From: Acidimicrobiales bacterium
GTDB lineage: Bacteria; Actinomycetota; Acidimicrobiia; Acidimicrobiales; SZUA-35
Assembly: GCA_050330635.1 (NCBI GenBank)
Contig: JBHJNQ010000064.1
Location: 6,311 to 70,310, forward strand
Length of the DNA: 64,000 nucleotides
Direction: 5' to 3'
Position numbers and translations under genes: made by a program. The number at the start of each line of letters is the position of its first letter. Positions within the stretch are counted from its first letter, which is position 1. Under the pieces are notes generated by a model. That model did no database searches. It was not told where the DNA came from and was given only the letters and a program-made list of their open reading frames with translations. Below, one piece after another: positions 7,438 to 53,817 of the stretch.

Positions 7438-9390
<1,953 letters not shown>

Positions 9391-9556
9391 GTCCTGCGCT
9401 CCCCGACTGGTGGTCACTGCTACGGGCGCCGGCGGTCACAGACCGCTCAGCGCCGCGAGCCTAGTGGCCCGATGGGGGATCCTGCCCGCTCCGGTCGGGC
9501 TCGGTCCCATCCAGGGCGGGGCCGAGGCCGAGGACGAGGACGAGGCCGCCGGGAGT

Positions 9557-10189
9557 CTAGGGCAGGCCGTAGAACTGGCGGAGGCCGGCGACCACGGTCT
9601 CCAGGCCGGCGTCGAACATCTCCGTGCTCGTCAGACGGCGCCGGGCGTCGAGGTAGGCGAGCGCCACCGGATCGTTGAGGGTCTCCGGGTCGAGGCCCTC
9701 CGTCTGGATCCCGACGGCCATCGACCCAAGCTCGTTTGCCGCGTGGCCCATGACGAACGAGACCCCGAAGTGGAGGGCGTGGCACGCCTGTTCGACGTCG
9801 AGGCCCACGGACTGCAGCCTGCCGTAGGAGAAGACGAGGACGTCGAGGGCCACCCGGCTCTTGGCCGGGCGGGCGGCAAACAGCTCGAGCGCCGCCTGAT
9901 GGTTGACCAGCACGTCGTGGAACGAGCGCAAGCCGCGACGGATGGCGGTCTCCCAATCGCCGTCGGGCACGTCGACGGGAAGCTCGATCTCGTCGAACAG
10001 GCAGTCGAGCACGGCGTCGAGCAGATCGTCCTTGTTGACCACGTAGTGGTAGAGCGACATGGCCTCGACGCCCAGCTCGTTGCCGAGCTTGCGCATCGAC
10101 AGCCCGGCTAGTCCCACCTCGTCGGTGAGCGCGAGGGCCGTCCTCGCGATCAGCTCTCGGCTGAGGGCGGATCTCATGGACGCGGACAT
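9557..10189 (-). CDS. TetR/AcrR family transcriptional regulator (TetR_C type)
   Basis: LSRELIARTAL...GLSMRKLGNELGVEAMSLYHYV.NKDDLL helix-turn-helix. Confidence 0.92.
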   Translation of the reverse strand: MSASMRSALSRELIARTALALTDEVGLAGLSMRKLGNELGVEAMSLYHYVVNKDDLLDAVLDCLFDEIELPVDVPDGDWETAIRRGLRSFHDVLVNHQAALELFAARPAKSRVALDVLVFSYGRLQSVGLDVEQACHALHFGVSFVMGHAANELGSMAVGIQTEGLDPETLNDPVALAYLDARRRLTSTEMFDAGLETVVAGLRQFYGLP

Positions 10190-10196
10190 GGGGGAG

Positions 10197-10219
10197 ACGC
10201 TACCGGAACGGTCCGTTCC
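10197..10219 (-). promoter_or_regulatory. Leaderless -10 box plus palindromic operator upstream of the TetR gene
   Basis: Minus-strand TAGCGT (10197-10202) lies 7 nt before the ATG; perfect inverted repeat GGAACGG-T-CCGTTCC at 10205-10219. Confidence 0.55.
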
Positions 10220-10345
10220 CCCGGCCTTCCAACGGCAAGGTCTCCCGCCGCGTCCCGCTCGTGTCCCTGCGACGTCCCACCACCGTCCCTCGACCGGGAT
10301 CTCGAGCCGTCCGTCCCAGGCGGGTCAAGCAAGCCGAACCCGAAA

Positions 10346-11395
10346 TCAGGGGCCGCTCCACCGGCACACCAGCCACGAACCGAGGCCCAGCGGGTCGAGC
10401 AGCGCTTCGGCCTCGACCGCCCGGCTCCGCATCCGCAGCGCCGTCAGATCGGGGGCGGCGGCGCCGGCCGCCCACCGTCGGCGCCCCTCGTCCACCAACT
10501 CGTCTATCCCCCACCGCCTCAGGAACCCCGCCTGGTCGACGACCTCGGTCGGGCCCGGGAGCTGATCGACGGCGAGATCGGTGGTGATGTCCCACCGGCC
10601 CGGCTCCCGGAGTGGGTCGTGCCCCCGTTGATGCTGGCGGTAGGTGCGCAGCCAGCCCCCCCGCCGCCCCAGCTCGACCGTGGTCGGGCTGCCGTAGTCG
10701 AACACCAGCACCACCGCCGGGCGTCGGGCCAGCACCGCCTCCATCCACCGTCGGGCCCCCTCGAGCACCGGCACCCTCGTCCCCACCGGCAGGCTCTCGG
10801 CGTCGGCGGGCAGGAGGGGCCCAAAATCGGACGGCACGAGCACCTCGCCCGGTCGGCCGTCCCGGTCCCGGCCGACGTGGAGCTCCGCCCAGCCGCCCGC
10901 CACGCGCTCGGCCACCCGGAACGGGATGTTGTCGAGCAGCTCGTTGGCCACCACGACTGCCCCGGCCACGTCGACGCCGGGGCCGAGCGCTTCGTCGGCG
11001 GTGGGCGCACCATGACCCGGGGCCCGGTCGACCGTTACCACCCGGCGTGCGGCGGCCGAGGGCCCGGGCGCCCGCTCCAAACCCCGGGCCAGGGTGCCCG
11101 GCCCGCTGCCGGCGTCGATCACGACGTACGGATCGGGTCGGCCCAGCTCCGCCCACCAGGCGTCGAGGGCCCGGGCCACCACCTCGGCGAACAGGGGCCC
11201 CACTTCGGGGCCGGTGATGAAGTCACCGCCCCGTCGACCGGCAGTGCCCACAGCCGAAGTGTAGAAGCCCGTACCGGGCCCGTACAGGCAACGCTCGACA
11301 TAGTGGTCGAACCGCTCGACGGTCGCCTCGCCGTCCGCCCCGGCCCCGAGCGACTGCCCGGCCGGCTCGGCCCCGGCGGTCTCGTCGTGGGTCAC
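10346..11395 (-). CDS. MidA/NDUFAF7-family (DUF185) SAM-dependent methyltransferase
   Basis: FDHYVERCLYGP..GFY, GDFITGPEVGPLF, DAGSGPGTL, ANELLDNIP, FDYG and PGRWDITTD motifs match the NDUFAF7/MidA pattern. Confidence 0.88.
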   Translation of the reverse strand: MTHDETAGAEPAGQSLGAGADGEATVERFDHYVERCLYGPGTGFYTSAVGTAGRRGGDFITGPEVGPLFAEVVARALDAWWAELGRPDPYVVIDAGSGPGTLARGLERAPGPSAAARRVVTVDRAPGHGAPTADEALGPGVDVAGAVVVANELLDNIPFRVAERVAGGWAELHVGRDRDGRPGEVLVPSDFGPLLPADAESLPVGTRVPVLEGARRWMEAVLARRPAVVLVFDYGSPTTVELGRRGGWLRTYRQHQRGHDPLREPGRWDITTDLAVDQLPGPTEVVDQAGFLRRWGIDELVDEGRRRWAAGAAAPDLTALRMRSRAVEAEALLDPLGLGSWLVCRWSGP

Positions 11396-11411
11396 CGTGC
11401 GGGGGCCGGGG

Positions 11412-12956
11412 TCAGCGCCGGCCTGCGACCTCGGCGAAGTCGGTGAGGTCGGGCACCACGCCGGTGACGCCGGCGATCAGGGTGGCGACGACGGTGATGG
11501 CCAGGGCCGCCACCAGGGGCGCCGGGATCCGCATCGGGGTCACGTCAGCATCGTCGGGGGCCGAGAGGAACCACATCTGCTTGGCCACGTTCAGGTAATA
11601 GAAGGCGGCCACCACCGTGTTGACGGCGGCTACCACGGCCAACGTCACCCCGGCGACGGTGTCGGCCTCCAGCAGGGCGCTGAACACCTGCCACTTTGCC
11701 AGCCAGCCCCCCATCGGGGGGATGCCGGCCAGGGAGAACAGGAACACGGTCATGGCCACCGTCAGCCCGGGGGCATAGTTGAGGAGGCCGGAGAACGACG
11801 AGATCTCGCCCGACCGGGTTCGGCGGCTGGCGGCGATGACGACGGCGAACGCTCCCAGGTTCATGACGGCGTAGATCACCAGGTAGGTGACGATCGACGC
11901 CCGGGCCGAGTCGGGTACCGACCCGTAGACGGCCAGCGGGGCCAGCATGTAGCCGGCCTGGGCCACCCCCGAATAGGCCAGCATGCGCACGATGTTGGAC
12001 TGGCGAAGGGCGATCAGGTTGCCCACCGTCATCGTGACGGCGGCCAGGATCCACATGAACGGCTCGATGACCTGCGATTGGCCGGGGAGGGCGACGATGA
12101 CGATCGTGACCAGCGCCACGAAACCTGCCGCCTTGGAGGCGACGGCGAGGAAGGCGGTGAGGGGCGTCGGCGCCCCCTCGTAGGTGTCGGGGGCCCAGGT
12201 GTGGAACGGTACCGCCGACACCTTGAAGGCAAAGCCGATGACCGTGAACAGGACAGCCAGGGTGATCATGGGGGTGGTCTCATCGCTCGTGATCGCCTCG
12301 GCGATCACCGCCAGCCGGGTGTCACCGGCGACCCCGTAGAGGAGCGACATGCCGTAGAGCATGATGGCCGAGGCGAACACGCCCATGAGCATGTACTTGA
12401 GGCCGGCCTCGTTCGACTTCAGGTCTCGCTTGCGCCAGGCCGCCAGCAGGTAGGCGGGGATCGACAGCAATTCGAGAGCGATGAAGATCGACACCAGGTC
12501 GCGGGCCGACGCCATGACCGACATGCCGAGCACCGAGGCTGCGATCAGCTGGTAGTACTCGCTGTCGTAGTAGTCGCCCTCGGCCATGTAGTTGCTGCTC
12601 AGCAGCACCACGACGTAGCCGATGAGGAAGAACAGCCCCTTCAGCACCAGGGCGTACCGGTCGACGACGTAGGCCCCCACGCCGTCCAGTCCGCCCCCTT
12701 CGAGGGTTCCCTGGAACAGCACCCGGGTCGCCCCGTCGTCCCAGAGGGTCAGGATCGGGATCATGGCCACCAGGAAGCCGATGCCGGTGAGGGCGGGCAT
12801 GAAGCGGCGGGTCCGCTCCAGGCCGACGACGTCGACGATGGTGACGAGGGCACCCCACCCCAGCAGCAACAGCTCGGGAGCGAAGGCATGCCAATCGATG
12901 TGGGGCCGCACGAAGGGCGAGGCCTCGGCGGTCTGCTGTGCGATGACGGCCAGCAC
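11412..12956 (-). CDS. nuoN: Complex I subunit N (11-subunit cluster)
   Basis: EAGLKY, FKVSAVPFHTWAPDTYEGAP, RMLAYS; antiporter-like membrane subunit. Confidence 0.95.
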   Translation of the reverse strand: MLAVIAQQTAEASPFVRPHIDWHAFAPELLLLGWGALVTIVDVVGLERTRRFMPALTGIGFLVAMIPILTLWDDGATRVLFQGTLEGGGLDGVGAYVVDRYALVLKGLFFLIGYVVVLLSSNYMAEGDYYDSEYYQLIAASVLGMSVMASARDLVSIFIALELLSIPAYLLAAWRKRDLKSNEAGLKYMLMGVFASAIMLYGMSLLYGVAGDTRLAVIAEAITSDETTPMITLAVLFTVIGFAFKVSAVPFHTWAPDTYEGAPTPLTAFLAVASKAAGFVALVTIVIVALPGQSQVIEPFMWILAAVTMTVGNLIALRQSNIVRMLAYSGVAQAGYMLAPLAVYGSVPDSARASIVTYLVIYAVMNLGAFAVVIAASRRTRSGEISSFSGLLNYAPGLTVAMTVFLFSLAGIPPMGGWLAKWQVFSALLEADTVAGVTLAVVAAVNTVVAAFYYLNVAKQMWFLSAPDDADVTPMRIPAPLVAALAITVVATLIAGVTGVVPDLTDFAEVAGRR

Positions 12957-12958
12957 GA

Positions 12959-14506
12959 TCAGCCTCCGGCTCCGAGCGCTTGGAAGACCTCACCCACGGC
13001 CGACGCCGGCCCGTTGGTGACGTCGAACACGATGCTCGGCACGAAACCGAGCAGGACGATGAGGATGAGCAGCGGAACCCAGGCCACCCACTCGGTGAAG
13101 ACCGTGTCGTGGATGTGGGGATCGTCGGCGTACTCCTCCGACGGGGTGCCGAAGGCGGTCCGCTGGAGCAGCCACAGGAGGTAGCCGGCGGCCAGCACCG
13201 TTCCCAGGGCGGCCACGACCATGTACACCCGGAACAGGGCGTCCGACACGCCCGGCGCCGGATCGTAGGCGGCGAGGATCGCCGGGAACTCACCCCAGAA
13301 CCCGGCGAGGCCGGGCAGGCCGAGGGAGGCCATGGTGGTGAAGCCGAGGATCCACCCCAGGCGGGGAGCCTGGACCAGCAGGCCTCCCAGGCGCTTGATC
13401 TCGAGGGTGTGGTAGCGCTCCTTCACCGAGCCGGCGATGAAGAACAACATGCCGGTGATGAGGCCATGCGCCACCATGCCGAAGATGGCGGCGTTGATGC
13501 CGAAGTCGGTGAGGGTGGCGATGCCGAGCATCACATACCCCATGTGGGCCACCGAGGAGAAGGCGATGAGGCGCTTCATGTCGGTCTGGGCCAGGCACCC
13601 GAGGGCACCGTAGATGATGCCGATCACGGCCAGCAGGCCGATCCACGGGGCCCACCTCACCGCCGCTTCCGGGAGGATGGGCAGGGCGATACGGATGAAC
13701 CCGTAGGTCCCGAGCTTCAGCAGCACGGCGGCCAGGATGACCGAACCCTGGGTCGGGGCCTGGGTGTGGGCGTCGGGCAGCCAGGTGTGGAAGGGGAAGA
13801 TCGGGACCTTGATGCCGAAGCCCATGAACATGCCACCGAAGATCAACACCTGGGTACTGAGGGCGATGTCACGGGTCGCCACCTCCTCGGCCAGGGCGGT
13901 GAGGGAGAAGGTCTGGGACCCGGTCACCCAGTAGAGGGCCAAGAAGCTGACCAGCATGAGGGCCGACCCGAACAGGGTGTAGAGGAAGAACTTGATGGCG
14001 GCGTAGAGGCGCTGCTCGCCCCCCCAGACCCCGATCATGAAGTACATCGGCAGGAGCACGACTTCGAAGAACACGAAGAACAGCACCAGATCCTGGGCCA
14101 CGAAGGTGCCGAGCATGCCGGTGTGCAACACCAGGATCAGCATCAGGAAGGCCTTGGCGTTGCCCGGCTCGGGAATGTGGTTCCAGCTGTAGACGATGAC
14201 GAGGGGAACGACCAGCAGGGTCAACGCCACCAGTGGCAGCGACATCCCGTCGAGGGCGATCGAGTACCGGGCGTCGATGATGTCGATCCAGCTGCGGTCG
14301 ACGGCGAACTGGAGGATCCGCGAGTCGTCGTAGTCGAAGTTCCGCAGCAGCAGCACACCGACCACGGCGCTGGCCACGGTGGCCACCAGGGCGACGACCT
14401 TGTGGGTCTCTTCTTCCCGCTCCGGGATGATCATCATGATGGCCGCCCCCACGAGGGGGAGGAAGACCATCAGGGTGAGGCCCCAGTCGTTGAGAAAGTC
14501 GATCAT
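12959..14506 (-). CDS. nuoM: Complex I subunit M (11-subunit cluster)
   Basis: FFVFFEVVLLPMYF, AAIKFFLYT, HTWLPDAHTQAP, LLKLGTYG. Confidence 0.95.
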   Translation of the reverse strand: MIDFLNDWGLTLMVFLPLVGAAIMMIIPEREEETHKVVALVATVASAVVGVLLLRNFDYDDSRILQFAVDRSWIDIIDARYSIALDGMSLPLVALTLLVVPLVIVYSWNHIPEPGNAKAFLMLILVLHTGMLGTFVAQDLVLFFVFFEVVLLPMYFMIGVWGGEQRLYAAIKFFLYTLFGSALMLVSFLALYWVTGSQTFSLTALAEEVATRDIALSTQVLIFGGMFMGFGIKVPIFPFHTWLPDAHTQAPTQGSVILAAVLLKLGTYGFIRIALPILPEAAVRWAPWIGLLAVIGIIYGALGCLAQTDMKRLIAFSSVAHMGYVMLGIATLTDFGINAAIFGMVAHGLITGMLFFIAGSVKERYHTLEIKRLGGLLVQAPRLGWILGFTTMASLGLPGLAGFWGEFPAILAAYDPAPGVSDALFRVYMVVAALGTVLAAGYLLWLLQRTAFGTPSEEYADDPHIHDTVFTEWVAWVPLLILIVLLGFVPSIVFDVTNGPASAVGEVFQALGAGG

Positions 14507-14562
14507 GCTTCAGTGCTTTCCGGTGGTTTCTTCTGTGTCTACGAGGGGGGTCACGGCCAGGC

Positions 14563-16779
14563 TCAGATGGCGACGATGAACACGGCCGCCAGCAGGGCGG
14601 CGGCACCGAACATGAGCGTGGCGTACTGGCGGATCTGTCCGGTCTGGATGCGGCGGAGGAACTGGCCCGACCCGCTGGCGGAGCGGCCCGAGGCGTTGAC
14701 GGTGCCGTCGACGAGGCCCTGGTCGATGAACCGGTAGACGAAGCGACCCACGGTGACCGACAGGTTGCCGACCAGGTTGACGATCCCGTCGAGCACGTTC
14801 TGGTTGGTCCAGTAGGCGGCCCGAGCCAGCGGACCCTTGGTGCTGCCGGCGACGATTCCGGTGTAGAGGTGATCGAGGTAGTACTTGTTGTCGAGCACCC
14901 GGTACCCGGCGGCGGCGAGGGTGTTGCGAGACCGGAGTCCATCGGTGTACTCGGCCGCCTTCGGGTCCTTGGCGTAGAGGGCCTGGTAGTAGCGCCACAC
15001 CCCGAAGCCGGCCAGCAGGGCCAGGGAGGTGGCCACGATGGCGAGCGTGAGGCTCGGGTTGGCGTGGCCGATGGCGGGAAAGCTGGCGATCCCCGCCGGC
15101 TCCACCCAGTTCTCGAAGCGGTAGGCCAAGCCCTCGGGCAGGCCGATGGCCTTCACGAAGGCACCGGGCATGTTCAAGAACCCGACGACCGAGGCCATGA
15201 AGGCGAGGATCACCAGCGGGCCGGTGATGCGGGGCCCCGACTCGTGGGGGTGGGCGTGGCCCCGGTACTCGCCGAAGAAGGTCAGCCACACGGTGCGGGT
15301 CATGTAGGCCGCGGTCATGGCGGCGGTGATCATCCCGAAGATGAACGGGATGAGGTAGTCGCCGTTGCCGTCGGTGCCGGGCCACACCCCGGCACCGGCC
15401 AGGATCTCGTCCTTCGACCAGAAGCCGGCCAGCGGGGGGATGCCGGCCAGGGCCGCCGACCCGATGATGAACGTCCAGAACGTGATCGGCATGTGCTTGC
15501 GCAGGCCGCCCATGTCGGCCTTCATGTCGAAGCTGTGGTGGCAGGCGTGGCTGACCGAGCCGGCCCCGAGGAACAGACACGCCTTGAAGAAGGCGTGGGT
15601 GAAGAGGTGGAACATGCCGGCGGTGTAGGCCCCGACGCCGAGAGCCAGGACCATGTAACCGAGCTGGGACACCGTCGAGTAGGCCAGCACCTTCTTGATG
15701 TCACGCTGGACGAAGGCCAGGGCGCCGCCGCCGATCGTGGTCAGACCCCCGATGAAGGCCATCAGGTTGATGCTCGACCCCCCGATCGACAGACCCTCCC
15801 AGAACACGGGGTACAGGCGGCCGATCATGTAGACGCCGGCCACCACCATGGTGGCGGCGTGGATCAGGGCCGAGACCGGGGTGGGGCCGGCCATGGCGTC
15901 GGGCAACCAGGTGTGGAGGATGAACTGACCCGACTTCGACATCACCGCCGCCATCAGCGACACCGCGGCCACCGTCAACAACGTGGAGCTGATCTCGCCA
16001 CCGACGGCCATCGAGTTGATCTCGAGGATGTCGAAGGTCTGCCCGGCGCCGAAGTAGAGGAGGATCACGCCGACCAGCAGACCGACGTCGCCGACCCGGT
16101 TGGTCAGGAACGCCTTGAGGGCGGCATCGGAGTTGGGTTTGTCCTCCCACCAGTGGCCGATGAGGGCGAACGAGCAGACACCGACGAGCTCCCACCCAAC
16201 GATCAGTTGCAGGGTGCTGGTCGACAGCACCATGAACAGCATCGCCGCGGTGAACAGGGACAGGAAGGCGTAATAGTGGGTGTAGCGACGATCGCCCTTC
16301 ACGTAGTCGGACGAGTAGATGTGGACGAGGCTGGAGATGAAGGTGACGACGAACAGCAGCATCACCGACTGACCGTCGATGAGGGTGCCGATGCGGAACG
16401 AGTTGGAGCCGCTCTCGAACCAGCGGACGTCGGTCACGACCGGGGCACCCCGGGTGGCGCCGTTGTCGCCCTCCTCGGCGGTGGCCACGGTGAGGGAGGC
16501 GGGAGCGGCCGACTCGCCGTCGACGACGAGACCCTCCTCGGTGGCGTCGCTGATGGCCTCCTCCGCGCCCTGGATGTCGCCGATCCAGCTGAACGCGGTC
16601 AGCACGGCCAGGACGAAGGCGGCGAGGACGGCGGCGATACCGATCTCGGCTCCCTTGAACGGCAACCGCTTGCCGAACAGCAGGATCAGCATGAACGACG
16701 CCGCCGGCAGGGCAGGGATCAGCCACGCGTTCTCGTACAACCAGGGCACGGCGGTTTCAGCAGCTTCGGTGACAAACAC
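14563..16779 (-). CDS. nuoL: Complex I subunit L (11-subunit cluster)
   Basis: [41 protein letters not shown]. Exact start uncertain. Confidence 0.95.
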   Translation of the reverse strand: MFVTEAAETAVPWLYENAWLIPALPAASFMLILLFGKRLPFKGAEIGIAAVLAAFVLAVLTAFSWIGDIQGAEEAISDATEEGLVVDGESAAPASLTVATAEEGDNGATRGAPVVTDVRWFESGSNSFRIGTLIDGQSVMLLFVVTFISSLVHIYSSDYVKGDRRYTHYYAFLSLFTAAMLFMVLSTSTLQLIVGWELVGVCSFALIGHWWEDKPNSDAALKAFLTNRVGDVGLLVGVILLYFGAGQTFDILEINSMAVGGEISSTLLTVAAVSLMAAVMSKSGQFILHTWLPDAMAGPTPVSALIHAATMVVAGVYMIGRLYPVFWEGLSIGGSSINLMAFIGGLTTIGGGALAFVQRDIKKVLAYSTVSQLGYMVLALGVGAYTAGMFHLFTHAFFKACLFLGAGSVSHACHHSFDMKADMGGLRKHMPITFWTFIIGSAALAGIPPLAGFWSKDEILAGAGVWPGTDGNGDYLIPFIFGMITAAMTAAYMTRTVWLTFFGEYRGHAHPHESGPRITGPLVILAFMASVVGFLNMPGAFVKAIGLPEGLAYRFENWVEPAGIASFPAIGHANPSLTLAIVATSLALLAGFGVWRYYQALYAKDPKAAEYTDGLRSRNTLAAAGYRVLDNKYYLDHLYTGIVAGSTKGPLARAAYWTNQNVLDGIVNLVGNLSVTVGRFVYRFIDQGLVDGTVNASGRSASGSGQFLRRIQTGQIRQYATLMFGAAALLAAVFIVAI

Positions 16780-16792
16780 GGATGATCCTCAC

Positions 16793-17092
16793 TCAACCCT
16801 TGAGCAGGTTGGCTTCGGCGACGTCGATGCTGCGCCGGTTCCGGTAGATGAGCAGGACGATGGCGAGACCGACACCGACCTCGGCCGCCGCCACGGCGAT
16901 GACGAAGAGAGCGAAGACCTGCCCGGCGACGTCGCCGTTGAAGGCCCCGAAGGCCACCAGGTTGATGTTGACCGAGTTCAGGATGAGCTCGATCGACATC
17001 AGGACGAGGACGCCGTTCTTGCGGGACAGCACACCGTAGACCCCGATGCAGAACAGCACGGCAGCGAGGATCAGGAACTGGTTGAGAAGCAC
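16793..17092 (-). CDS. nuoK: Complex I subunit K (11-subunit cluster)
   Basis: LMSIELILN, VAAAEVGVGLA; 99 aa, 3 TM. Confidence 0.95.
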   Translation of the reverse strand: MLLNQFLILAAVLFCIGVYGVLSRKNGVLVLMSIELILNSVNINLVAFGAFNGDVAGQVFALFVIAVAAAEVGVGLAIVLLIYRNRRSIDVAEANLLKG

Positions 17093-17095
17093 GGG

Positions 17096-17653
17096 TCAAT
17101 CCCTCCGGGCGACGACGACGGCGCCGATGAGGGCGGCCAGCAGCAGGACGGACAGCGCCTCGAAGGGCACGATGTAAGTACTGAAGATCTGGTCGGCGAC
17201 CTCGGCCGTGCGCTGGGGGGCGAGGGTATCGGGCAGCTCGGTGTCGCCGTAGTACTCCCAGAGGGAGTAGCTCATCACGGCGAACATGCCGACGGCGACC
17301 AGGGCGCCGATCCAGCGCTGCTCGTGGTCGAGATCGGTCTCGGCCCCGATCTTGGCCCTGGTCAGCATGACGCCGAAGAGCAGCAGCACCATGATCGCCC
17401 CCAGGTACACGAGGACCTGGGTGGCGGCGATGAACTCGGCCCCCAGGATCACGTACACGCCGGCCACCGCCGACAGCACGACGAGGAGGTAGAGCGCGGC
17501 GTGGACGACGTTGTTGGTCGTCACCATCTTGAGCGCGGCGACGACGGCCACGATGGCGATGACGGCGAAGAACACGTTGACCACGCCGGTCTCGGTGCCC
17601 GTCATCGGCACCACCACCTCCTGGGCGAGCAGCCCGAGGGAAGCGAGGTTCAT
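17096..17653 (-). CDS. nuoJ: Complex I subunit J (11-subunit cluster)
   Basis: HAALYL, AEFIAATQVLVYLGAIMVL, PFEALSVLLL. ATG 17653 overlaps the nuoI stop. Confidence 0.93.
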   Translation of the reverse strand: MNLASLGLLAQEVVVPMTGTETGVVNVFFAVIAIVAVVAALKMVTTNNVVHAALYLLVVLSAVAGVYVILGAEFIAATQVLVYLGAIMVLLLFGVMLTRAKIGAETDLDHEQRWIGALVAVGMFAVMSYSLWEYYGDTELPDTLAPQRTAEVADQIFSTYIVPFEALSVLLLAALIGAVVVARRD

Positions 17654-18150
17654 CGCGGCACCTTCTTGGCCTTTACCTCGGCCCCCGCCTCGTAGCTCTC
17701 GAACTCCGGCACGGTGGTCATCCACTGCCCCAGGCGGGTCTTGTCGTGGAGGAGGTCGGCGATCCGTGGTTCGGAGTACTCGTACTCCGGGCTCCAGAAC
17801 AGGGCCTCGAACGGGCACACCTCCACACAGATCCCGCAATACATGCAGAGCCCGTAGTCGATGTCGAAGCGGTCGAGCTTGTTGACCTGGCGGGGCTTGC
17901 CTCCGGCCCGACGGGGCGGGGCGAGGTCCTTGTGGGCCTCGATGTAGATGCACCAGTCGGGACACTCCCGGGCGCACAGCATGCAGGAGGTGCAGTTCTC
18001 CTCGTGGAGGGCGATCACCCCCCGGGCCCGTGGAGTCGGGTCCTCCTTCTCGTGGGGGTACTGGACGGTCTCCGCCCCCTTCGTCACCGTTTTGACGATC
18101 TCGGAGAACGTGACGCCGAGACCTTTGACGACACCGGGTACGAGCGACAT
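17650..18150 (-). CDS. nuoI: Complex I subunit I (11-subunit cluster)
   Basis: TVQYP, CTSCMLCARECP and CMYCGICVEVCP. Confidence 0.95.
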   Translation of the reverse strand: MSLVPGVVKGLGVTFSEIVKTVTKGAETVQYPHEKEDPTPRARGVIALHEENCTSCMLCARECPDWCIYIEAHKDLAPPRRAGGKPRQVNKLDRFDIDYGLCMYCGICVEVCPFEALFWSPEYEYSEPRIADLLHDKTRLGQWMTTVPEFESYEAGAEVKAKKVPR

Positions 18151-19196
18151 CAGAACACCACCTTGAGCAGCCCGGTGGCCGCGATGTTGATCAGTGAGAT
18201 CGGGATCAGGTACTTCCAGGCGAACGCCTGCAGCTGATCCTCGCGGAACCGGGGATAGGTGAATCGGACCCAGTAGATGATGAAGGTGAGCACCAGCATC
18301 TTGACCACCATCACCAGCGGACCGACGACGTTCATCACGTCGGAGTACGGGTCGATCCCGAACAGGTCGGTGACGAACGGCGGCACCGACCAGCCGCCGA
18401 GGAAGAGCACCGCCGCCAGGAAGGCGAAGATGTTGGCCGAGGCGAACTCGCCGATGAAGAACATGAGGAACCGGAAGCCCGAATACTCCGTCATGTAGCC
18501 CGAGACGAGCTCGGACTCAGCGATCGGCATGTCGAACGGCACCTGGGTCAGCTCGGCCTGGACTGCGATCATGAAGATGAAGAAGCCGATGAACTGGGTC
18601 AGGATGAACGGGTTACCGAGGGCGCCCCAGCCGAAGATCTCACCGTCGATCTGAGCCGACACGATCCCCTGCAGGTTGAGGGTGCCGGCCTGGATGACCA
18701 CGCCGACCACGGCCAGGACGAGCGGCAGCTCGTAGGCGATGAGCTGACCGCCGGCCCGCAGGCCACCGAGCAGGGAGTATTTGGAGGCGCTGGCCCACCC
18801 CGCCATGAGGACGCCGATGACCGACACCGAGGTGACGGCCAGGGCGAAGAACACGCCGGTGTCGAAGTCGGCGAAGACGGCGTCGGGCCCGAACGGGATG
18901 AACAGCACGAGGAGGAAGGTGCTGATCAGCACGATGTAGGGCGCGGCGGCGAACACGAAGCGGTCGGCCCGGGCTGGGAAGATGTCTTCCTTCTGGGCGT
19001 TCTTGCCGAGCTCGGCCAGCAGCTGGAGGGAGCCGTAGGGCCCGGCCTCCATGGGGCCGAGCCGGCTCTGCATGAAGCTCACCATCTTGAACAGGTACAG
19101 GTAGACGGTGGTGCCGGCGGGGATCAGCACGGCGATGAAGGCCATCAGCAGCTTGAACACCGTCGTCTGCCAGAACGCGAACTCAGCGACGAGCAC
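18150..19196 (-). CDS. nuoH: Complex I subunit H (11-subunit cluster)
   Basis: MQSRLGP, KEDI, KYSLLGGLR, PFDMPIAESELVSGYMTEYSG, PRFREDQL. Confidence 0.95.
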   Translation of the reverse strand: MLVAEFAFWQTTVFKLLMAFIAVLIPAGTTVYLYLFKMVSFMQSRLGPMEAGPYGSLQLLAELGKNAQKEDIFPARADRFVFAAAPYIVLISTFLLVLFIPFGPDAVFADFDTGVFFALAVTSVSVIGVLMAGWASASKYSLLGGLRAGGQLIAYELPLVLAVVGVVIQAGTLNLQGIVSAQIDGEIFGWGALGNPFILTQFIGFFIFMIAVQAELTQVPFDMPIAESELVSGYMTEYSGFRFLMFFIGEFASANIFAFLAAVLFLGGWSVPPFVTDLFGIDPYSDVMNVVGPLVMVVKMLVLTFIIYWVRFTYPRFREDQLQAFAWKYLIPISLINIAATGLLKVVF

Positions 19197-19280
19197 GACG
19201 ACCTCCAGCCGCAGGTTCCGCCACCGGCAGAACTCCGTCAGTGACGAGCGAAGCGAGGAACGGCGCGAACTCAGCGACGA
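19176..19280. repeat. 17-bp direct repeat flanking a REP-like palindromic element
   Basis: CGCGAACTCAGCGACGA at 19176-19192 and 19264-19280; GAGCGAAGCGAG core between them. Confidence 0.6.
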
Positions 19281-19286
19281 AGAGAT

Positions 19287-20459
19287 TCACCGGTCGATGT
19301 CTCCCAGGATGAAGTAGAGCGAGGCCAGGATGGTGATCACGTCGGGGACGTAGGTGCCCTTCAGCAGCCACGGGCTGATCGACATGTTGGAGAAGCTGGC
19401 CGAGCGGATCTTCACCCGGAACGGCTCGAGCCCACCCTGGCTCACCACGTAGTAGCCCATGATGCCCAACGGGTTCTCGGTGGCCACGTAGGCTTCGCCC
19501 GCGGGCACCTTGATGATGCGGGGCACCTTGGCCATGATCGGACCGGCGGGGATGGCGTCGAGCAACTGGTCGAGGATGTGGCAGGCCTCCCGGACCTCCT
19601 GCAGACGAACCCAGTAGCGGGCGAACGAGTCGCCGTCGGGGTGGGTCCACACCTTCCAGTCGACCTTGTCGTAGGCCAGGCCGACCGGGTTGTCACGGCG
19701 GAGGTCCCAGTCGACACCGGAGGCTCGGATGTTGGCTCCCGACAGACCGTACGACAGTCCGATGTCGGCCGGGATGACCCCGATCCCCCGCGTCCGGGTC
19801 TGGAAGATCTCGTTGCCGACGATCAGGTCTTCCATCACCTGGCAGAAGTTGCGGATCTTGTCGAGGGAACGGCGGGTCTCGTCGATCCAGCCGGCGGGGA
19901 GGTCGTCCTTGATGCCGCCGATGCGATCGAAGTTGGGGTGGAACCGGCCGCCGGTGGCGGCCTCGATCTGGTTGAGGATGTGCTCCCGGTCGCGGAAGGC
20001 GTAGAACACGGGGGTCACGGCCCCCAGCTGGACGCCCATGTCGCCCAGGAACAGGGTGACGTTGGCGATGCGGGCCATCTCGAACAGGATCGTGCGGATC
20101 CACTGGGCCCGAGGTGGGGCCTCGACACCCATCAGCTGCTCGGCGGCGAGGATGAACGGCACCTCGTTGGCGAAGCTACCGAGCCAGTCGATCCGGTTGA
20201 TCAGGGTGGTGACCTGCGGATACGTGCGGACCTCGACCAGCTTCTCGTAACCCCGGTGCATGTAGCCCATGATCGGGTCGGCCTCGATCACCTGTTCGCC
20301 GTCGAGGCGGACCACGATACGGAGGGTGCCGTGGGTGGCCGGATGCTGGGGCCCGATGTTGAGGGTCATCCCCTCCGCCTCGAGCTCCACGTTGACCCGG
20401 GCGTCGGCCGCCTGGGAGGCGATGTAGGACAACTGCCGTCGATCGCTCACCGCGGTCAC
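19287..20459 (-). CDS. nuoD: Complex I subunit D (11-subunit cluster)
   Basis: NIGPQHPATHGTLR, GYMHRGYEK, RIDWLGSF, GDIDR C-terminus; no Ni-binding CxxC motifs. GTG 20459 overlaps the nuoC stop. Confidence 0.94.
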   Translation of the reverse strand: MTAVSDRRQLSYIASQAADARVNVELEAEGMTLNIGPQHPATHGTLRIVVRLDGEQVIEADPIMGYMHRGYEKLVEVRTYPQVTTLINRIDWLGSFANEVPFILAAEQLMGVEAPPRAQWIRTILFEMARIANVTLFLGDMGVQLGAVTPVFYAFRDREHILNQIEAATGGRFHPNFDRIGGIKDDLPAGWIDETRRSLDKIRNFCQVMEDLIVGNEIFQTRTRGIGVIPADIGLSYGLSGANIRASGVDWDLRRDNPVGLAYDKVDWKVWTHPDGDSFARYWVRLQEVREACHILDQLLDAIPAGPIMAKVPRIIKVPAGEAYVATENPLGIMGYYVVSQGGLEPFRVKIRSASFSNMSISPWLLKGTYVPDVITILASLYFILGDIDR

Positions 20460-21217
20460 GATGCGTCCTCCGGGTTCGTGGTGGCGGGGCCGGCGCCCTC
20501 GTCGGCGGTCGGGCCGTCGTCGGTGGTCGGCATGGGCTCGACGTCGACGATGCCCGGCCACGGCTTCACCAGCCGGGCCAGCAGGGGGAAGTCCTTGCGC
20601 AGGGGGTGGCCCTCGAAATCCGTCGGCAGGTACAGGTTGCGCAGGCCGGGATGGCCGATGAACCTGATGCCGAACATCTCCCACGCCTCGCGCTCGTGCC
20701 AGTCGGCCCCGGGGTAGGTGTCGGTCCAGGTGGCGATGGCGAGCTCGGCGTCGACATCGGCCTTGAGGGTCAGGCTGAGCTTCGTGGCCAGGTTGCCCAC
20801 CCGGGCGATGACCTGGAAGCGGGTCTCCCCCCCGGCGGCGCTGGCCGCCGCCGCCGCTTCGGCCGTCGGGGCGCCCTCGACATCCTCGTCACCGGCGCTC
20901 GGCGGCTCGAGCGCCTTGTCGACCTCGGCGTCGAGGCTGCGGCCGTACGGCGACGGCAGCCAGTCGATGGCCGAGAGCCAGTCGAAGAACCGGAACCGCT
21001 GCCGGTTGCGCAGATAGTCGGCGGTGTCGGCCCAGGCGTCGTTGGCGACCCGGATCCAGAGATCCCGACCGGGCACCAGATGGGTGGCCACGACGGCGTC
21101 GCCGAGCTCACCGCTGACCGCCTCGAGGAGGGCGGTGCGGCCCTCGTCGACGATCTCGGTGTCGGCCGTGTCGGTATCGGTGGTCTCGCCGGTGTCAGCT
21201 GATGGCAAGGGGATCAC
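20456..21217 (-). CDS. nuoC: Complex I subunit C (11-subunit cluster)
   Basis: [36 protein letters not shown]. Confidence 0.93.
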
Positions 21218-21695
21218 CCTTCCACTTCTCTGCCATGTCCTCGTTCTGGATCAGTTCCTGGAGCAGCACGATGCCCTCCAGTAGCGCCTCGGGTCGGGGG
21301 GGGCACCCGGGAACGTACACGTCGACGGGGATGATCTGGTCGACACCCTTGGTCACGGAGTAGCTGTCCCAGTAGGGGCCGCCGCAGTTGGCACACGATC
21401 CCATCGAGATCACGTACTTTGGCTCCGGCATCTGCTCGTAGAGCCGACGGACGGCCGGGGCCATCTTGTCGGTCACCGTGCCCGACACGACGACGAGGTC
21501 GGCCTGGCGGGGGCTGGCGGGCAGGGGGATCACCCCGAGGCGCATCACGTCGTAGCGGGGCGACCCGAAGGCCGCCCCCATCTCGATGGCACAGCACGCC
21601 AGGCCCCACTGGTACACCCACAGCGAGTACTTGCGACTCATGTTGAGCAGCGTGGTCAGCCCTTTTGGCAGCTTGCCCGATTCGACCAATCCCAT
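21195..21695 (-). CDS. nuoB: Complex I subunit B (11-subunit cluster)
   Basis: [32 protein letters not shown]. Confidence 0.95.
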
Positions 21696-21741
21696 GTGGT
21701 GTGTTCTCCCTCGACGTGTCCTCGACCGGTGAGCGTTGCAG

Positions 21742-22107
21742 TCACGCCCAGCGCAGCACGCCCTTTCGCCAGGCGTAGGCCAGACCGAGGGCGAGAATGA
21801 AAATGAAGATCACCATCTCGACCAGCCCGAAGTAGCCGTACGCCTCCAACCGGGTGGCCCACGGGAAGATGAAAACCGCTTCGACGTCGAACATGACGAA
21901 CAGCAGGGCGAAAATGTAGTAGCGGATCTGGCTCTGTGACCAACCGGAGCCGACCGGGTCGACGCCGCTCTCGTAGTTCTCGACCTTGCCGGCGGACGGA
22001 CGGTTGGGACGGAGCAGCGAGGCGATCCCGATGAAGCCGCCGACAACCCCGCAGCCCAGGAGGGCGAACAGGATGACGAGGAGATACTCGCGAAGGAAGT
22101 CCGACAC
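21742..22107 (-). CDS. nuoA: Complex I subunit A (11-subunit cluster)
   Basis: [32 protein letters not shown]. Start placed at GTG 22107. Confidence 0.93.
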
Positions 22108-22273
22108 GACTGGCGAGCCTACCTGTGACAAGGGCGCCGATCCAAGATCATCACGTGTGACTTTCTGGTGGAGATTGCCCGGTCGCCCCTCGCCCGGCGT
22201 CGGCCCGGCCCGATGGCGGACGACGTAGCGGACGGCCTGGCGAGCGAGGGTACGACCCTCTAGGTTGCCGGGG

Positions 22274-22738
22274 GTGAGCGACCACGCCGAAGCCCACGGA
22301 CCGTCGCCCGGATCGGTCGCCTGGGCCGACCCGGCCACTCTCGGTGATGAACCGCCGGTGGAGCGCGTGCTCGCCGTCTACGGGACCCTGCGCCCGGGGG
22401 ACACCAACTTCGACGTGGTGGGCGGGATCGCCGGCGAGTGGTTCACCGGAGTGATCCGAGGTCGACGGTTCATCAATCCCGCCGGCCGGTACCGGGGCTA
22501 CCCCGCGTTCGTGGCCGCCGACGCCACGGGGTCACCCGGCGGTGGAACCGGGCCGGCCCCCGTCCCGGTCGCCGTGCTCGTCTCGGTCGAGCTGCCCCGT
22601 CACTGGGCTCGCCTCGACGACTTCGAGGGACCAGGCTACCGGCGGGTGCCGATCGGCGTCGTGCTCGACCCTCGCGCCGGTGGCGAGCCCGTCGCCTGCC
22701 GAGCCTACGTCTACGAGACCCTGCCCCATCCGGCCTGA
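22274..22738 (+). CDS. Gamma-glutamylcyclotransferase (AIG2-like) family protein
   Basis: AVYGTLRPG, GYP, LDDFEGPGYRR and AYVY motifs. TAGGTT lies 7 nt before GTG 22274. Confidence 0.85.
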   Translation: MSDHAEAHGPSPGSVAWADPATLGDEPPVERVLAVYGTLRPGDTNFDVVGGIAGEWFTGVIRGRRFINPAGRYRGYPAFVAADATGSPGGGTGPAPVPVAVLVSVELPRHWARLDDFEGPGYRRVPIGVVLDPRAGGEPVACRAYVYETLPHPA

Positions 22739-43843: not shown

Positions 43844-44145
43844 CCCTTCAACGACGTCAGATCATCGGCGGTGAGCGTCGGGCGGCGGCGCATGACGGCC
43901 ACCACGATCGACAGCCCGACGACCACCTCGGCCGCCGCCACCACCAGCACGAAGAACACCGCCGTCTGTCCCGCCAGGTCATCGAGGGCGCGGGAGAAGG
44001 CGACGAACGACAGGTTGACGGCGTTGAGCATCAGCTCGACGCACATGAACATGATGAGTGGATTGCGGCGGACCAGCAGACCGGTCAGGCCGATCGTGAA
44101 CAACAGGGCGCTCAGCACCAGGTACCACGTCTCGGTCAGCTCCAC
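43840..44145 (-). CDS. nuoK: Complex I subunit K (14-subunit cluster)
   Basis: [27 protein letters not shown]. Start at GTG 44145. Confidence 0.94.
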
Positions 44146-44176
44146 AGCGACCCTCCGTCCGGCGTTCCGTCGTCCA

Positions 44177-44758
44177 TCACGTCGCCGCCTGTCCCGGCTC
44201 GTCGACGGTGAGGTCCTCGGCACCCCGGTTGCGCACGAGCACCACGGCGCCGACGGTGGCGATGGTCAGGAGGAGGGCGGTGGCCTCGAAGGCCAGGACG
44301 TTACGGGTGAACAGATCGCGGGCCAACTGGTCGATGTCGGGCTGGGTGTCATCGATCGGTTGGGTGGCGGCCCGGGTACCGGTGAGGGCGACCGCACCCT
44401 CGTCGCCGCCCTTGCCGGACAAGAACAGGCCACCGGCGATCATGACCAGCACCAGGGCCCCGACCAGGATCCCGCCCACCCGTTGCCCGGCCAGGGGTTC
44501 CACGCTGAGATCCTCGGCCTGGTCGACACCGAGGAGCATGATCACGAACAGGAAGAGCACGACGATGGCGCCGGCGTAGACCACCACCTGCACCAGGGCG
44601 AGGAAGTGGGCACCCTGCACCACGAAGAGCACGGCGACCCCGAAGAGGGAGGCGATCAACGACAGGGCGGCCCGCACGGGGTTGGCGTTGAGGACCACGC
44701 CGAGGCCACCGCCGAGAACGATGGCCCCGGCGACGACGAAGACGATGACGTCGGCCAT
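44177..44758 (-). CDS. nuoJ: Complex I subunit J (14-subunit cluster)
   Basis: [37 protein letters not shown]. Confidence 0.94.
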
Positions 44759-50625: not shown

Positions 50626-50713
50626 CAGTACACGTTCTCCGTTGCTGCGTGGAGGGAGGATCGCCCGAGGAGGGGGCGCGCTGGTCCGGATCCTGCGGGA
50701 GCTGGGTCCACTA

Positions 50714-51331: not shown

Positions 51332-51332
51332 A

Positions 51333-52664
51333 TCACCGGTCCACCTCCCCCAGCACCGGGTCGACGGAGGCGATGACCGCCACCGCGTCGGCCAGGAAGC
51401 CGTCGGCCATCATGTGGGGCATCGTCTGCAGGTTGACGAAGCTCGGCCCCCGGATGTGCATCCGGTAGGGCTTGGGTCCACCGTCGGACACCAGGTAGCA
51501 CCCGAGCTCCCCCCGGGGCGACTCGACCGCCACGTACACCTCTCCCGGCGGCACCTTGAAGCCCTCGGTGAAGATCTTGAAGTGGTGGATGAGCGCTTCC
51601 ATCGACTCGTCGATGCGGGCCCGCGGCGGAGGCGTGACCTTGGTGTCGCCCGACCGGTAGTCGCCATCGGGCATCCGCTCCATGATCTGGTGGACGATCC
51701 TGATCGATTCCCGGATCTCGTTGAGGCGGATGGCGTAGCGGTCGAAGGCGTCACCGTAGGTGCCGACGAGCACGTCGAAGTCGACCTCGTCGTAGGCCAG
51801 GTAGGGCATGTTGCGGCGCAGATCCCACTCGACGCCGGTGCTGCGGAGCACGGGCCCGGTGGCGGAGAGGGCGATGGCCTCCTCCTGGGTGATGACACCG
51901 ACCCCCTGCAAGCGATTGCGCCAGATCGGCTGACCGGTCATGAGGATGTCGTACTCCTCGAGGCGGGGCGGGAGCATGTCCATCAGCTCGCTCAACTGCT
52001 CCTGCCAGCCGTCGGGCAGGTCGGCGGCGACGCCGCCGGGGCGGATGTAGTTGTGGTTCATACGCAGACCGGTGACCGTCTGGAAGAAGCGGAGCACCTG
52101 CTCCCGTTCCCGCCACCCGTAGATCATCATCGACACCGCGCCGATGTCCATCCCGTTGGTGGCCATCGACAACAGGTGCGACGAGATCCGGTTCAGCTCG
52201 CACATCAGCATCCGAATCCACGTCGCCCGTGGTGGGACCTCGAGGCCGAGCAGCTCTTCGGTGGCGAGCGAGAACACCAGCTCGTTGAAGAACGGCGAGA
52301 CGTAGTCCATCCGGGTCACGTTCGTTGGACCCTGGAGATAGGTGAGGGTCTCCCCCGTCTTCTCCATTCCGGTGTGGAGGTAGCCGATGATGGGCTTCGA
52401 CCGCAGGACGGTCTCGCCGTCGAGCTCCAGCATGAGGCGGAGCACCCCGTGGGTCGACGGGTGCACCGGGCCCATGTTGACCAGCATCGTCTGGTCGCTC
52501 TCGCCGGCGATGCGGGCCCCGCCGACCGTGGCCGCAGCCTCGACCTCCGACATGCGCAACACCGACCCCCGGCGGGGCAGATGATGGAGCTGACCGCCCT
52601 CGACGAAGTTGTCGTCGAGAGCATCGGCGGTGGCCGACTCGGATCCGCTGACGGTCACGGTCAT
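51333..52664 (-). CDS. nuoD: Complex I subunit D (14-subunit cluster)
   Basis: NMGPVHPSTHGVLR, GYLHTGMEK, RMDY, ESPRGE, GEVDR. Confidence 0.95.
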   Translation of the reverse strand: MTVTVSGSESATADALDDNFVEGGQLHHLPRRGSVLRMSEVEAAATVGGARIAGESDQTMLVNMGPVHPSTHGVLRLMLELDGETVLRSKPIIGYLHTGMEKTGETLTYLQGPTNVTRMDYVSPFFNELVFSLATEELLGLEVPPRATWIRMLMCELNRISSHLLSMATNGMDIGAVSMMIYGWREREQVLRFFQTVTGLRMNHNYIRPGGVAADLPDGWQEQLSELMDMLPPRLEEYDILMTGQPIWRNRLQGVGVITQEEAIALSATGPVLRSTGVEWDLRRNMPYLAYDEVDFDVLVGTYGDAFDRYAIRLNEIRESIRIVHQIMERMPDGDYRSGDTKVTPPPRARIDESMEALIHHFKIFTEGFKVPPGEVYVAVESPRGELGCYLVSDGGPKPYRMHIRGPSFVNLQTMPHMMADGFLADAVAVIASVDPVLGEVDR

Positions 52665-53230: not shown

Positions 53231-53817
53231 CGGCCGTCGCCGATCGTGGTCAGCACGGGGGCGCCCTGCCCGTCACGCTGCTCGATCGTGATCTCGGCCC
53301 CGCCCCCCGTGGCCGAGCGGCGTCGCAGCAGCTCACCCGACTCGATGTTGGCCCGCAGGGTGAGGATGGCGTGGAGGAGGGTCTCCGGGCCCGGTGGGCA
53401 CCCGGGGGCGTAGACGTCGACCGGGACGACCTGGTCGACGCCCTGCACGATGGCGTAGTTGTTGAACATCCCACCGCTGGAGGCGCACACCCCCATCGAG
53501 ATGACCCACTTCGGCTCCATCATCTGGTCGTAGATCTGCCGCAGGACCGGAGCCATCTTCTGGCTGACCCGCCCGGCCACGATCATCACGTCGGCCTGGC
53601 GGGGCGAGGCCCGGAAGACCTCCATGCCGAGGCGGGCGATGTCGTAGTGGGAGCCGCCGGTGGCCATCATCTCGATGGCGCAGCACGCCAGACCGAACGA
53701 TGCCGGCCACGACGAGCGGGCCCGCGACCACGACACGAGCTTCTCCAGCGGGGCGGTGACGACATTGTGGTCGAGTCCCTCGAAGCCGTGCTCGTTGACG
53801 TTGCTGACCAGTCCCAT
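53227..53817 (-). CDS. nuoB: Complex I subunit B (14-subunit cluster)
   Basis: [32 protein letters not shown]. Confidence 0.95.

Follow-up and report, generated by a model that had tools for sequence, protein, structure and literature searches.

The midA Gene and the nuo2 Operon

The DNA analyzed here (the window) is a stretch of 64,000 nucleotides (nt) from an Acidimicrobiales bacterium (assembly GCA_050330635.1, contig JBHJNQ010000064.1, positions 6,311 to 70,310), whose genome (G000) comprises 5.4 Mb in 84 contigs. The nearest public records to the window are all metagenome-assembled genomes (MAGs) of Acidimicrobiales. The gene under study, midA, lies on the minus strand at 10346..11395, starts with GTG and encodes a protein of 349 amino acids (aa), which is almost certainly a MidA/NDUFAF7-family S-adenosylmethionine (SAM)-dependent methyltransferase. 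Directly upstream of it, nuoA2, nuoB2, nuoC2, nuoD2, nuoH2, nuoI2, nuoJ2, nuoK2, nuoL2, nuoM2 and nuoN2, which encode subunits of complex I, form one minus-strand run from 22338 to 11412. This run, the nuo2 operon, is of the 11-subunit type: nuoH follows nuoD immediately, and there is no nuoE, nuoF or nuoG. These three genes are confined, at 46712-51331, to a second operon, which has 14 genes and extends over ~38167-54395.

The first-pass annotation of this DNA had placed a methyltransferase gene 17 nt after the nuoN stop codon of an 11-subunit operon. Both points are correct. Eleven nuo genes occupy 11412-22338 on the same strand, and the first base of midA is 17 nt past the last base of the stop codon, leaving a spacer of 16 nt (11396..11411, minus strand) between the nuoN2 stop (11412-11414) and the midA start (11395-11393). 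This GTG is the sole in-frame ATG, GTG, TTG or CTG from the upstream stop to the conserved core. A scan of 9300-12000 revealed no promoter-like site and two weak terminator-like matches, both within nuoN2; the 16-nt spacer itself contains no promoter-like or terminator-like site. Public sequencing runs that contain 10346-13000 are DNA runs only, a few of which may stem from the source sample, and none is an RNA run. It is probable that midA is the last gene of the 11-subunit complex I operon and would modify the NuoD of that enzyme.

Family Assignment of MidA

The midA product matches Pfam PF02636 (Methyltransf_28, formerly DUF185) with an E-value of 2.3e-20 and 73.5 bits, the cut-off being 23.3. 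In a genome-wide scan it scores 61.8 bits against PF02636, and the source genome contains one PF02636 gene and two nuoD genes. None of the NCBIfam models matches the product. A profile from the alignment of 37 MidA orthologues (A1) was compared with the PDB. It matched 4f3n (1.2e-42), 1zkd (1.3e-34) and Dictyostelium MidA 5ztz (2.3e-29), strong matches were to MidA-type proteins only, and the alignment to solved homologues spans profile positions 6-287 of 333. In this PDB comparison, 1zkd and 5ztz rank behind the best match, the beta-proteobacterial 4f3n. It is the COG1565 protein of Burkholderia thailandensis (4f3n, 4g67), which is 26% identical to the window MidA (5.3e-17 with the single sequence) and has no known link to complex I.

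The AlphaFold2 model of MidA built on A1 has a predicted local distance difference test score (pLDDT) of 89.4 and a predicted template modelling score (pTM) of 0.87. It shows the seven-beta-strand methyltransferase core and the extra domains of the family, as in 5ztz, 1zkd and 4f3n. In the Foldseek search with this model, the six best chains are all of the MidA type (4f3n, 4g67, 5ztz, 5zu0 and 1zkd among them) with template modelling (TM) scores of 0.70-0.72, of which 0.72 belongs to the Burkholderia protein. Beyond the MidA-type chains, the TM score falls to ~0.3. The DUF185 membership proposed in the first-pass annotation is confirmed by the hidden Markov model search, and profile and Foldseek agree with it.

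The SAM-binding motif I, DAGSGPGTL (residues 94-102; 11090..11116, minus strand), aligns with G-x-G-x-G of 4f3n, 1zkd and 5ztz, and its glycines G96, G98 and G100 show little or no variation among the 37 orthologues. The family motif ANELLDN (residues 150-156; 10928..10948, minus strand) aligns with NE..D..P of the same three structures, and N151, E152, L153, D155 and N156 are invariant in the orthologues. Together with ANELLDN, the motifs GDF.T.PE, DYG (residues 232-235) and PG..DIT (residues 265-273) are invariant or nearly so. The SAM, NE..D..P, DYG and PG..D(I/L)T motifs of MidA all have aligned counterparts in the three solved homologues.

NuoD and NuoB of the Two Isoforms

NDUFAF7 symmetrically dimethylates one Arg of human NDUFS2, the NuoD orthologue, and is required for complex I assembly (PMC3829151). 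This Arg is dimethylated in mammals, yeasts and Paracoccus, and not in E. coli (PMC8042128, citing Carroll et al. 2013). E. coli, which was in our control set, has no PF02636 match. When NuoD has Thr at this position, as in Thermus, R83 of Nqo6/NuoB occupies the same space beside the Fe-S cluster N2, a relation described as an intersubunit switch (PMC8042128).

The two NuoD proteins of the window differ at this very position. NuoD2 (19287..20459, minus strand; 390 aa) contains GYMHRGYEK, in which Arg69 (codon CGG, 20253..20255, minus strand) is the predicted methylation site. It aligns with R of mouse NDUFS2 GLLHRGTEK and with T of Thermus Nqo4 GYLHTGFEK. NuoD1, the internal comparison from the 14-gene operon (51333..52664, minus strand; one candidate start, ATG at 52664), contains GYLHTGMEK with Thr (codon ACC, 52371..52373, minus strand). 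Both motifs and both codons are as the first-pass annotation had them, and the interval that it assigned to its proposal ends, at 20459, on the GTG start of nuoD2.

That annotation regarded NuoD1 as a natural negative control, and the control proved stronger than it had noted since NuoB differs as well. The core of nuoB1 (53320..53748, minus strand) includes an Arg codon, CGG at 53569-53571, whose residue aligns with Thermus Nqo6 Arg83 and with the corresponding Arg of Mycobacterium smegmatis NuoB. At the position of Thermus Nqo6 Arg83, NuoB2 has Thr73 (21477..21479, minus strand), which is aligned to Thr of mouse NDUFS7 (...AGTLTNK...) and of E. coli NuoB; the best PDB matches of NuoB2 are mitochondrial NDUFS7 chains. 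The switch is thus reciprocal: NuoD2-Arg with NuoB2-Thr is the mitochondrial type, while NuoD1-Thr (HTG) with NuoB1-Arg (AGR) is the pair found in Thermus/Mycobacterium-type complex I (Nqo4 Thr and Nqo6 Arg83). Judged from the aligned residues, the two isoforms differ coordinately at the N2 site, and midA is linked only to the mitochondrial-type one. The Thermus-type isoform of the window has no linked methyltransferase and therefore serves as an internal contrast.

The Arg is present in all NuoD2 sequences that could be read to the N-terminus: GYMHRGYEK was found in two sets of Acidimicrobiales loci, in 43 of 43 and in 11 of 11. The NuoD1-type sequences read outside the window (n = 8) all have Thr.

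Linkage and Co-Occurrence in Acidimicrobiales

A MidA homologue was found in 57 of the 61 genomes made up of the source genome and its relatives, including 36 of 36 same-family relatives. Of 29 same-family loci, 25 have nuoN2 immediately upstream of midA, and so do 18 of 20 loci taken from 20 further families of the order; L044 in the latter set is a short contig. Among 80 public Acidimicrobiales records, 75 have nuoN2 upstream on the same strand, and the aligned parts are less than 500 nt apart in 67. Record L138, from Actinospongicola halichondriae Hal317, a cultivable member of Acidimicrobiia, has midA after nuo2. Four same-family loci (L010, L019, L022 and L024) have no nuo gene in the 1.5-kb flanks of midA, three public records (L066, L103 and L125) have none within 10 kb of it, and another record (L092) ends too soon to show its neighbours. 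The linkage survives REARRANGEMENT in two loci: in L042, midA has nuoN of the 14-gene operon on one side and nuoA2 on the other, which places it directly upstream of nuo2, and in L088 it is convergent with nuoN2. The conserved linkage in relatives on which the first-pass annotation depended is therefore seen across the order.

Presence and absence agree with this pattern. The four genomes of the order without MidA have a sole NuoD that is 37-41% identical to NuoD2, belongs to the NuoD1 type and reads HTGMEK. In the sample of the class (n = 32), 29 genomes have both genes, two have neither, and one (G416) has NuoD2 without MidA, its NuoD2 being at a contig end.

Three further observations were made on these loci. 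The 14-gene and the 11-gene operons are often in tandem, with nuoN1 and then nuoA2 within 0.1-5 kb (L042 = G058, L037, L041, L046, L167-L182). Two public MAG records titled Bifidobacterium breve (L116 and L136) contain a nuo2-midA operon of the Acidimicrobiales type, and their NuoD2 is 81-82% identical to that of the window; the records are probably mislabelled or mis-binned contigs. In one relative with a 2.4-Mb genome (G049), midA may be decaying.

Distribution in Other Actinomycetota

The sample consisted of 401 Actinomycetota genomes; the tallies include genomes flagged as unpublished, and loci were fetched from the others only. MidA (profile A1) was found in 127 and NuoD at E ≤ 1e-30 in 344 of them. 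A NuoD hit at E ≤ 1e-100 was classified as NuoD2-type, and the counts for the 368 "same phylum" genomes outside the class were tallied by hand. About 82 of these 368 have MidA and a NuoD2-type hit, and 15 have MidA and weaker NuoD hits only. At least seven of the 15 (G079, G080, G094, G123, G148, G363 and G436) have another Arg-type NuoD, reading HRGVEK or HRSLEK, and the next gene in those loci, where seen, is nuoH or nuoI, not nuoE or nuoF. The first-pass annotation had proposed to examine MidA and NuoD for co-occurrence: an Arg-type NuoD is present in nearly all MidA-positive genomes, and MidA was never linked to a Thr-type NuoD. Families f42 (MidA in 0 of 13 genomes), f43 (0 of 20), f80 and f61 have an 11-gene operon with no MidA found, and their NuoD2 reads HR(G/A/S)FEK. 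By hand reading, and among the matches listed, midA is within 10 kb of a NuoD2-type hit in at least 37 published "same phylum" genomes; in at least 24, again among the matches listed, the two are on separate contigs or more than 10 kb apart.

The neighbourhoods were read from 52 fetched stretches plus further loci of the sample genomes. In 13 of 13 loci, from seven families (f44, f50, f55, f62, f66, f70 and f74), a solitary nuoD2-type gene lies near or beside midA, with no other nuo gene within the 6-20 kb examined. The two genes are mostly convergent and are separated by 42-130 nt or by one to a few genes; in four loci (L143, L145, L152 and L155) both are confirmed by Pfam. Two genomes with a solitary nuoD2 (G074 and G214) also carry a nuoA2-B2-C2-H2 cluster without nuoD (L195 and L196), and the solitary gene is therefore the missing subunit.

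A maximum-likelihood tree was built quickly from 75 NuoD rows, which were selected among the fetched loci, and was rooted on NuoD1; in it, the Arg-type rows are all on one side (99). The Acidimicrobiales rows are from 14 loci plus NuoD2 of the window. Solitary nuoD2 genes adjacent to midA are found in at least three separate places, and one such lineage is a recent paralogue of the operon NuoD2 of f44. In f44, MidA is present in three of eight genomes, always beside a NuoD2-type gene, which is solitary in both loci fetched (L145 and L151). The gene midA thus accompanies a relocated nuoD2 instead of staying with the other operon genes, and no other observation points as strongly to NuoD as the partner of MidA. 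As the genomes are related, the solitary pairs do not represent many independent events. A complex prediction for NuoD2 (alignment A2) and MidA (A1), run without controls, gave a score of 0.11 and a mark of 0.32 and speaks neither for nor against binding. Taken together, comparison of the genomes suggests that MidA is probably tied in function to NuoD2 or to nuo2.

The residue two places after the Arg was considered as a marker of MidA substrates, Tyr with MidA and Phe without, and was rejected. Phe is present in 15 of 15 operon NuoD2 sequences from MidA-less genomes. Among six MidA-positive f46 genomes, however, the residue is Phe in five, Met in one (HRAMDK) and Tyr in none. It is Tyr in all NuoD2 of Acidimicrobiia and f37, and Ala, Pro or Tyr in solitary copies. 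In the sequences compared, this residue follows the phylogeny and is no marker of MidA.

Several loci deserve separate mention. In G119 and G188 (94% complete; L146, L149, L197 and L198), one nuoB was found, in a cluster with its own nuoD; the solitary NuoD2 of these genomes may have no second complex to join. In L155 of G337, a BNR-repeat (sialidase-like) gene (9709-11166, minus strand) lies between midA and the solitary nuoD2, on the strand of midA. Many f50 genomes have a similar gap of ~1.6-2.4 kb between midA and nuoD2; the intervening open reading frame (ORF) in L152 has no Pfam match. Contig G323:C498, from a genome of family f47 with 640 contigs, carries both MidA (2.7e-122) and NuoD2 (81% identity); MidA was found in two of 33 f47 genomes, and the contig is likely a foreign one in the bin.

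Other Genes of the Operon and Its Surroundings

All genes of the nuo2 operon are on the minus strand. Starting from the midA side, they are nuoN2 (11412..12956; PF00361, 2.7e-70), nuoM2 (12959..14506; PF00361 and PF01059), nuoL2 (14563..16779; PF00361 and PF00662), nuoK2 (16793..17092; PF00420), nuoJ2 (17096..17653; PF00499), nuoI2 (17650..18150; 4Fe-4S dicluster domains) and nuoH2 (18150..19196; PF00146, 3e-97). The coordinates of nuoL2 are those of the longest ORF, and the real start is probably further in. The ATG of nuoJ2 at 17653 overlaps the nuoI2 stop (ATGA). Next is nuoD2, which is assigned by PF00346 and the NCBIfam NuoD models; its GTG start is preceded by GGAGG and overlaps the TGA of nuoC2 (GTGA). 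The remaining genes are nuoC2 (20456..21217, longest ORF; PF00329), nuoB2 (21195..21695; NCBIfam NuoB) and nuoA2 (21742..22338, longest ORF; NCBIfam NuoA), whose start is likely TTG at 22131 or GTG at 22107.

A TetR-family regulator gene (9557-10189, minus strand) lies 156 nt past midA. A perfect 15-base palindrome, GGAACGGACCGTTCC, is found at 10205-10219, 16-30 nt upstream of the ATG of this gene, and is operator-like in appearance. Of the 29 same-family loci, 27 keep the TetR gene downstream of midA, as do the 17 public records, out of 80, that are closest to the window; records further out do not. It is followed on the same strand by an acetate--CoA ligase gene (7438-9417, minus strand; NCBIfam NF001208, E = 6e-302).

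Comparison with Known Systems

NDUFAF7/MidA of human and of Dictyostelium discoideum (5ztz, 5zu0 and 5zzw) share with the window MidA the PF02636 domain, the fold (TM 0.70-0.71) and the SAM and family motifs. The substrate Arg of NDUFAF7, in the HRG motif of NDUFS2, aligns with NuoD2 Arg69, and NDUFAF7 acts on this NuoD orthologue during assembly (PMC3829151). The window MidA, known from sequence and model, differs from NDUFAF7 in that it is bacterial, is ~20% identical to it and has no targeting peptide. Unlike NDUFAF7, it is encoded in the operon of its presumed substrate and is tied to an 11-subunit enzyme without NuoEFG.

Bacterial members of the family include alpha-proteobacterial homologues such as 1zkd of Rhodopseudomonas palustris, which are inferred to methylate NuoD (PMC9006661). 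The complex I of Paracoccus carries dimethyl-Arg at the equivalent position (PMC8042128). Alpha-proteobacterial MidA serves a 14-subunit enzyme, whereas the window MidA is actinobacterial and tied to the 11-subunit isoform.

The closest arrangement in print is that of Ca. Actinomarina, of the same class (Acidimicrobiia), in which nuoA-D and nuoH-N of the 11-subunit type are followed by NDUFAF7 (K18164/PF02636), read as an accessory assembly component (bioRxiv 10.1101/2021.02.01.429150). The gene order is the same as in the window, but heliorhodopsin precedes the operon and htpX and pspE follow it. The operon arrangement had therefore already been noticed in print. The excerpt of that preprint mentions NDUFAF7 in passing and contains no residue analysis, distribution survey or solitary nuoD2 pairs. 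In Streptomyces, nuoD2 is reported to be apart from the nuo2 operon (PMC8388888); the passage on it does not mention a methyltransferase. The solitary nuoD2 and midA pattern is consistent with this separation. It makes a two-gene unit in Actinomycetota other than Acidimicrobiales, and one family with such units has genomes of 7-10 Mb.

To judge by its title, Shahul Hameed et al. 2018 (Cell Rep) places the origin of the methylation in Proteobacteria. Literature searches turned up no analysis dealing with the Arg/Thr contrast, the NuoB switch in this setting or solitary nuoD2-midA pairs; that work and Elurbe & Huynen 2016 may treat the bacterial distribution.

Proposed Role of MidA and Alternatives

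The family, the predicted fold, the cofactor and family motifs, the gene order with its conservation and the residue states were established here; from these, we infer co-transcription, the substrate, the modified residue and the kind of methylation. It is rather likely that MidA serves NuoD2 of the 11-subunit isoform by arginine methylation of Arg69. In the proposed course, midA would be expressed together with the nuoA2-N2 operon, of which it would form the twelfth and final gene. Its product would act on free NuoD2 ahead of the docking of NuoB2 and would methylate Arg69, the R of the HRG motif beside cluster N2. The methylation may aid assembly of the 11-subunit isoform lacking NuoEFG, or may tune its N2 site, a role that would mirror that of NDUFAF7 on NDUFS2 in mitochondria. 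The 14-subunit isoform would need no such factor because NuoD1 has Thr and NuoB1 supplies the arginine.

A number of points weigh against this proposal. The Arg is present in 44 of 44 NuoD2-type sequences from the fetched loci, including 17 operon copies from MidA-less genomes, and in ~61 of the 368 "same phylum" genomes a NuoD2-type hit is not accompanied by MidA. Since the Arg is kept where MidA is missing, methylation cannot be generally required, and in these sequences the retention of Arg is not diagnostic of MidA. In three families (f37, f30 and f46) that have the 11-gene operon, midA lies 4-7 kb downstream of it or at another place in the genome, and the MidA-positive G137, G395 and G439 (92-98% complete) show only a NuoD reading HTGMEK, followed by nuoE and nuoF. 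Within the order, co-loss of midA and nuo2 is expected because the genes are adjacent, and is hence no independent evidence. In G049, the midA match is split by an internal TGA while nuo2 is intact (L054, G049:C1:1233398-1234386). The window MidA is 20-26% identical to the solved homologues. In addition, the function of MidA in prokaryotes is described as "only inferred in silico", and Wolbachia MidA expressed in E. coli is reported to methylate DNA (both PMC12455994).

These points affect two phrases of the first-pass annotation. The statement that NuoD keeps the target Arg is correct for NuoD2, but the Arg does not distinguish genomes with MidA from those without. The description of MidA as a dedicated factor for one isoform fits the conserved linkage to nuo2 and NuoD2; it is itself a deduction, and both the families with unlinked midA and the three genomes with Thr-type NuoD only stand against it. 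Its interpretation as a whole is supported by comparative genomics only, in which every in-silico test that it proposed came out favourably.

The alternatives place the target of MidA elsewhere or deny it one. MidA might work with the nuo2 complex but not on the HRG arginine, either modifying another residue or subunit or holding NuoD2 mainly as a non-catalytic chaperone. The gene context would allow this, as it points to NuoD2 or nuo2 and is silent on residue and chemistry, and the equal conservation of the Arg where MidA is missing is in line with it. However, the SAM-binding and family motifs invariant in 37 orthologues argue for retained catalysis, the sole characterised members of the family methylate exactly this Arg (PMC3829151), and a relocated nuoD2 keeps midA beside it while other subunits do not. 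We consider this explanation rather unlikely, if the most serious of the three. A target unrelated to complex I, whether another protein, a nucleic acid or a small molecule, would reduce the place in the operon to co-expression or inherited synteny. It would suit f37, f46 and f30, in which midA is unlinked to nuo genes; by crude ORF calling, the neighbours there are genes for an aldolase, Hsp20, DUF2090, a racemase and an M48 peptidase, with no recurring pattern. The three MidA-positive genomes in which no Arg-type NuoD was seen and the DNA methylation reported for the Wolbachia protein (PMC12455994) point the same way. It is nevertheless improbable given that MidA recurs beside NuoD2-type genes in varied architectures and in at least four NuoD lineages. 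Moreover, ~82 of the 97 MidA-positive "same phylum" genomes have a NuoD2-type hit, at least seven of the other 15 have the different Arg-type NuoD described above, and the eukaryotic orthologue binds NDUFS2 (PMC9006661).

That midA is a decaying or inactive remnant is hardly credible. The split match in the G049 relative and the Pfam match of the window protein, which covers profile positions 94-233 only, could be read in this way. Against this, midA reads through without interruption in the window and in the majority of more than 100 loci, its motifs do not vary, the full-length fold is confidently predicted, and the orthologue profile aligns to solved homologues over positions 6-287 of 333. 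Methylation of NuoD2 Arg69 by MidA is the reading that we prefer.

Implications

The role of dimethyl-arginine beside N2 is open between assembly and tuning of the cluster, and an answer awaits removal of the methylase with the arginine kept (PMC8042128). The bacterium described here has two isoforms, one with NuoD-Arg, NuoB-Thr and a midA gene of its own, the other with the Thermus-type pair and no such gene. The value of the system lies in this built-in isoform contrast and in the portable nuoD2-midA pair, which would offer a bacterial route to a question of mitochondrial complex I. With the pair, a clean test by genetics and biochemistry could become feasible in a tractable bacterium. Methylation of NuoD2 would also be one of the few examples of arginine methylation of proteins in Gram-positive bacteria, and it would bear on the origin of the modification.

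A bolder extension, which we put forward as speculative and on balance doubtful, is that NuoD2 and MidA are an old, portable pair of substrate and enzyme genes in Actinomycetota. If this were true, complex I arginine methylation would not be a proteobacterial invention, and methylated free-standing NuoD2 would be an exchangeable Q-module subunit that would fit into the nuo2 clusters lacking nuoD. In G119 and G188, where one nuoB was found, NuoD2 might then replace NuoD1 in the 14-subunit enzyme, and the exchange of NuoD1 and NuoD2 would switch the N2 environment between the "Thermus type" and the "mitochondrial type".

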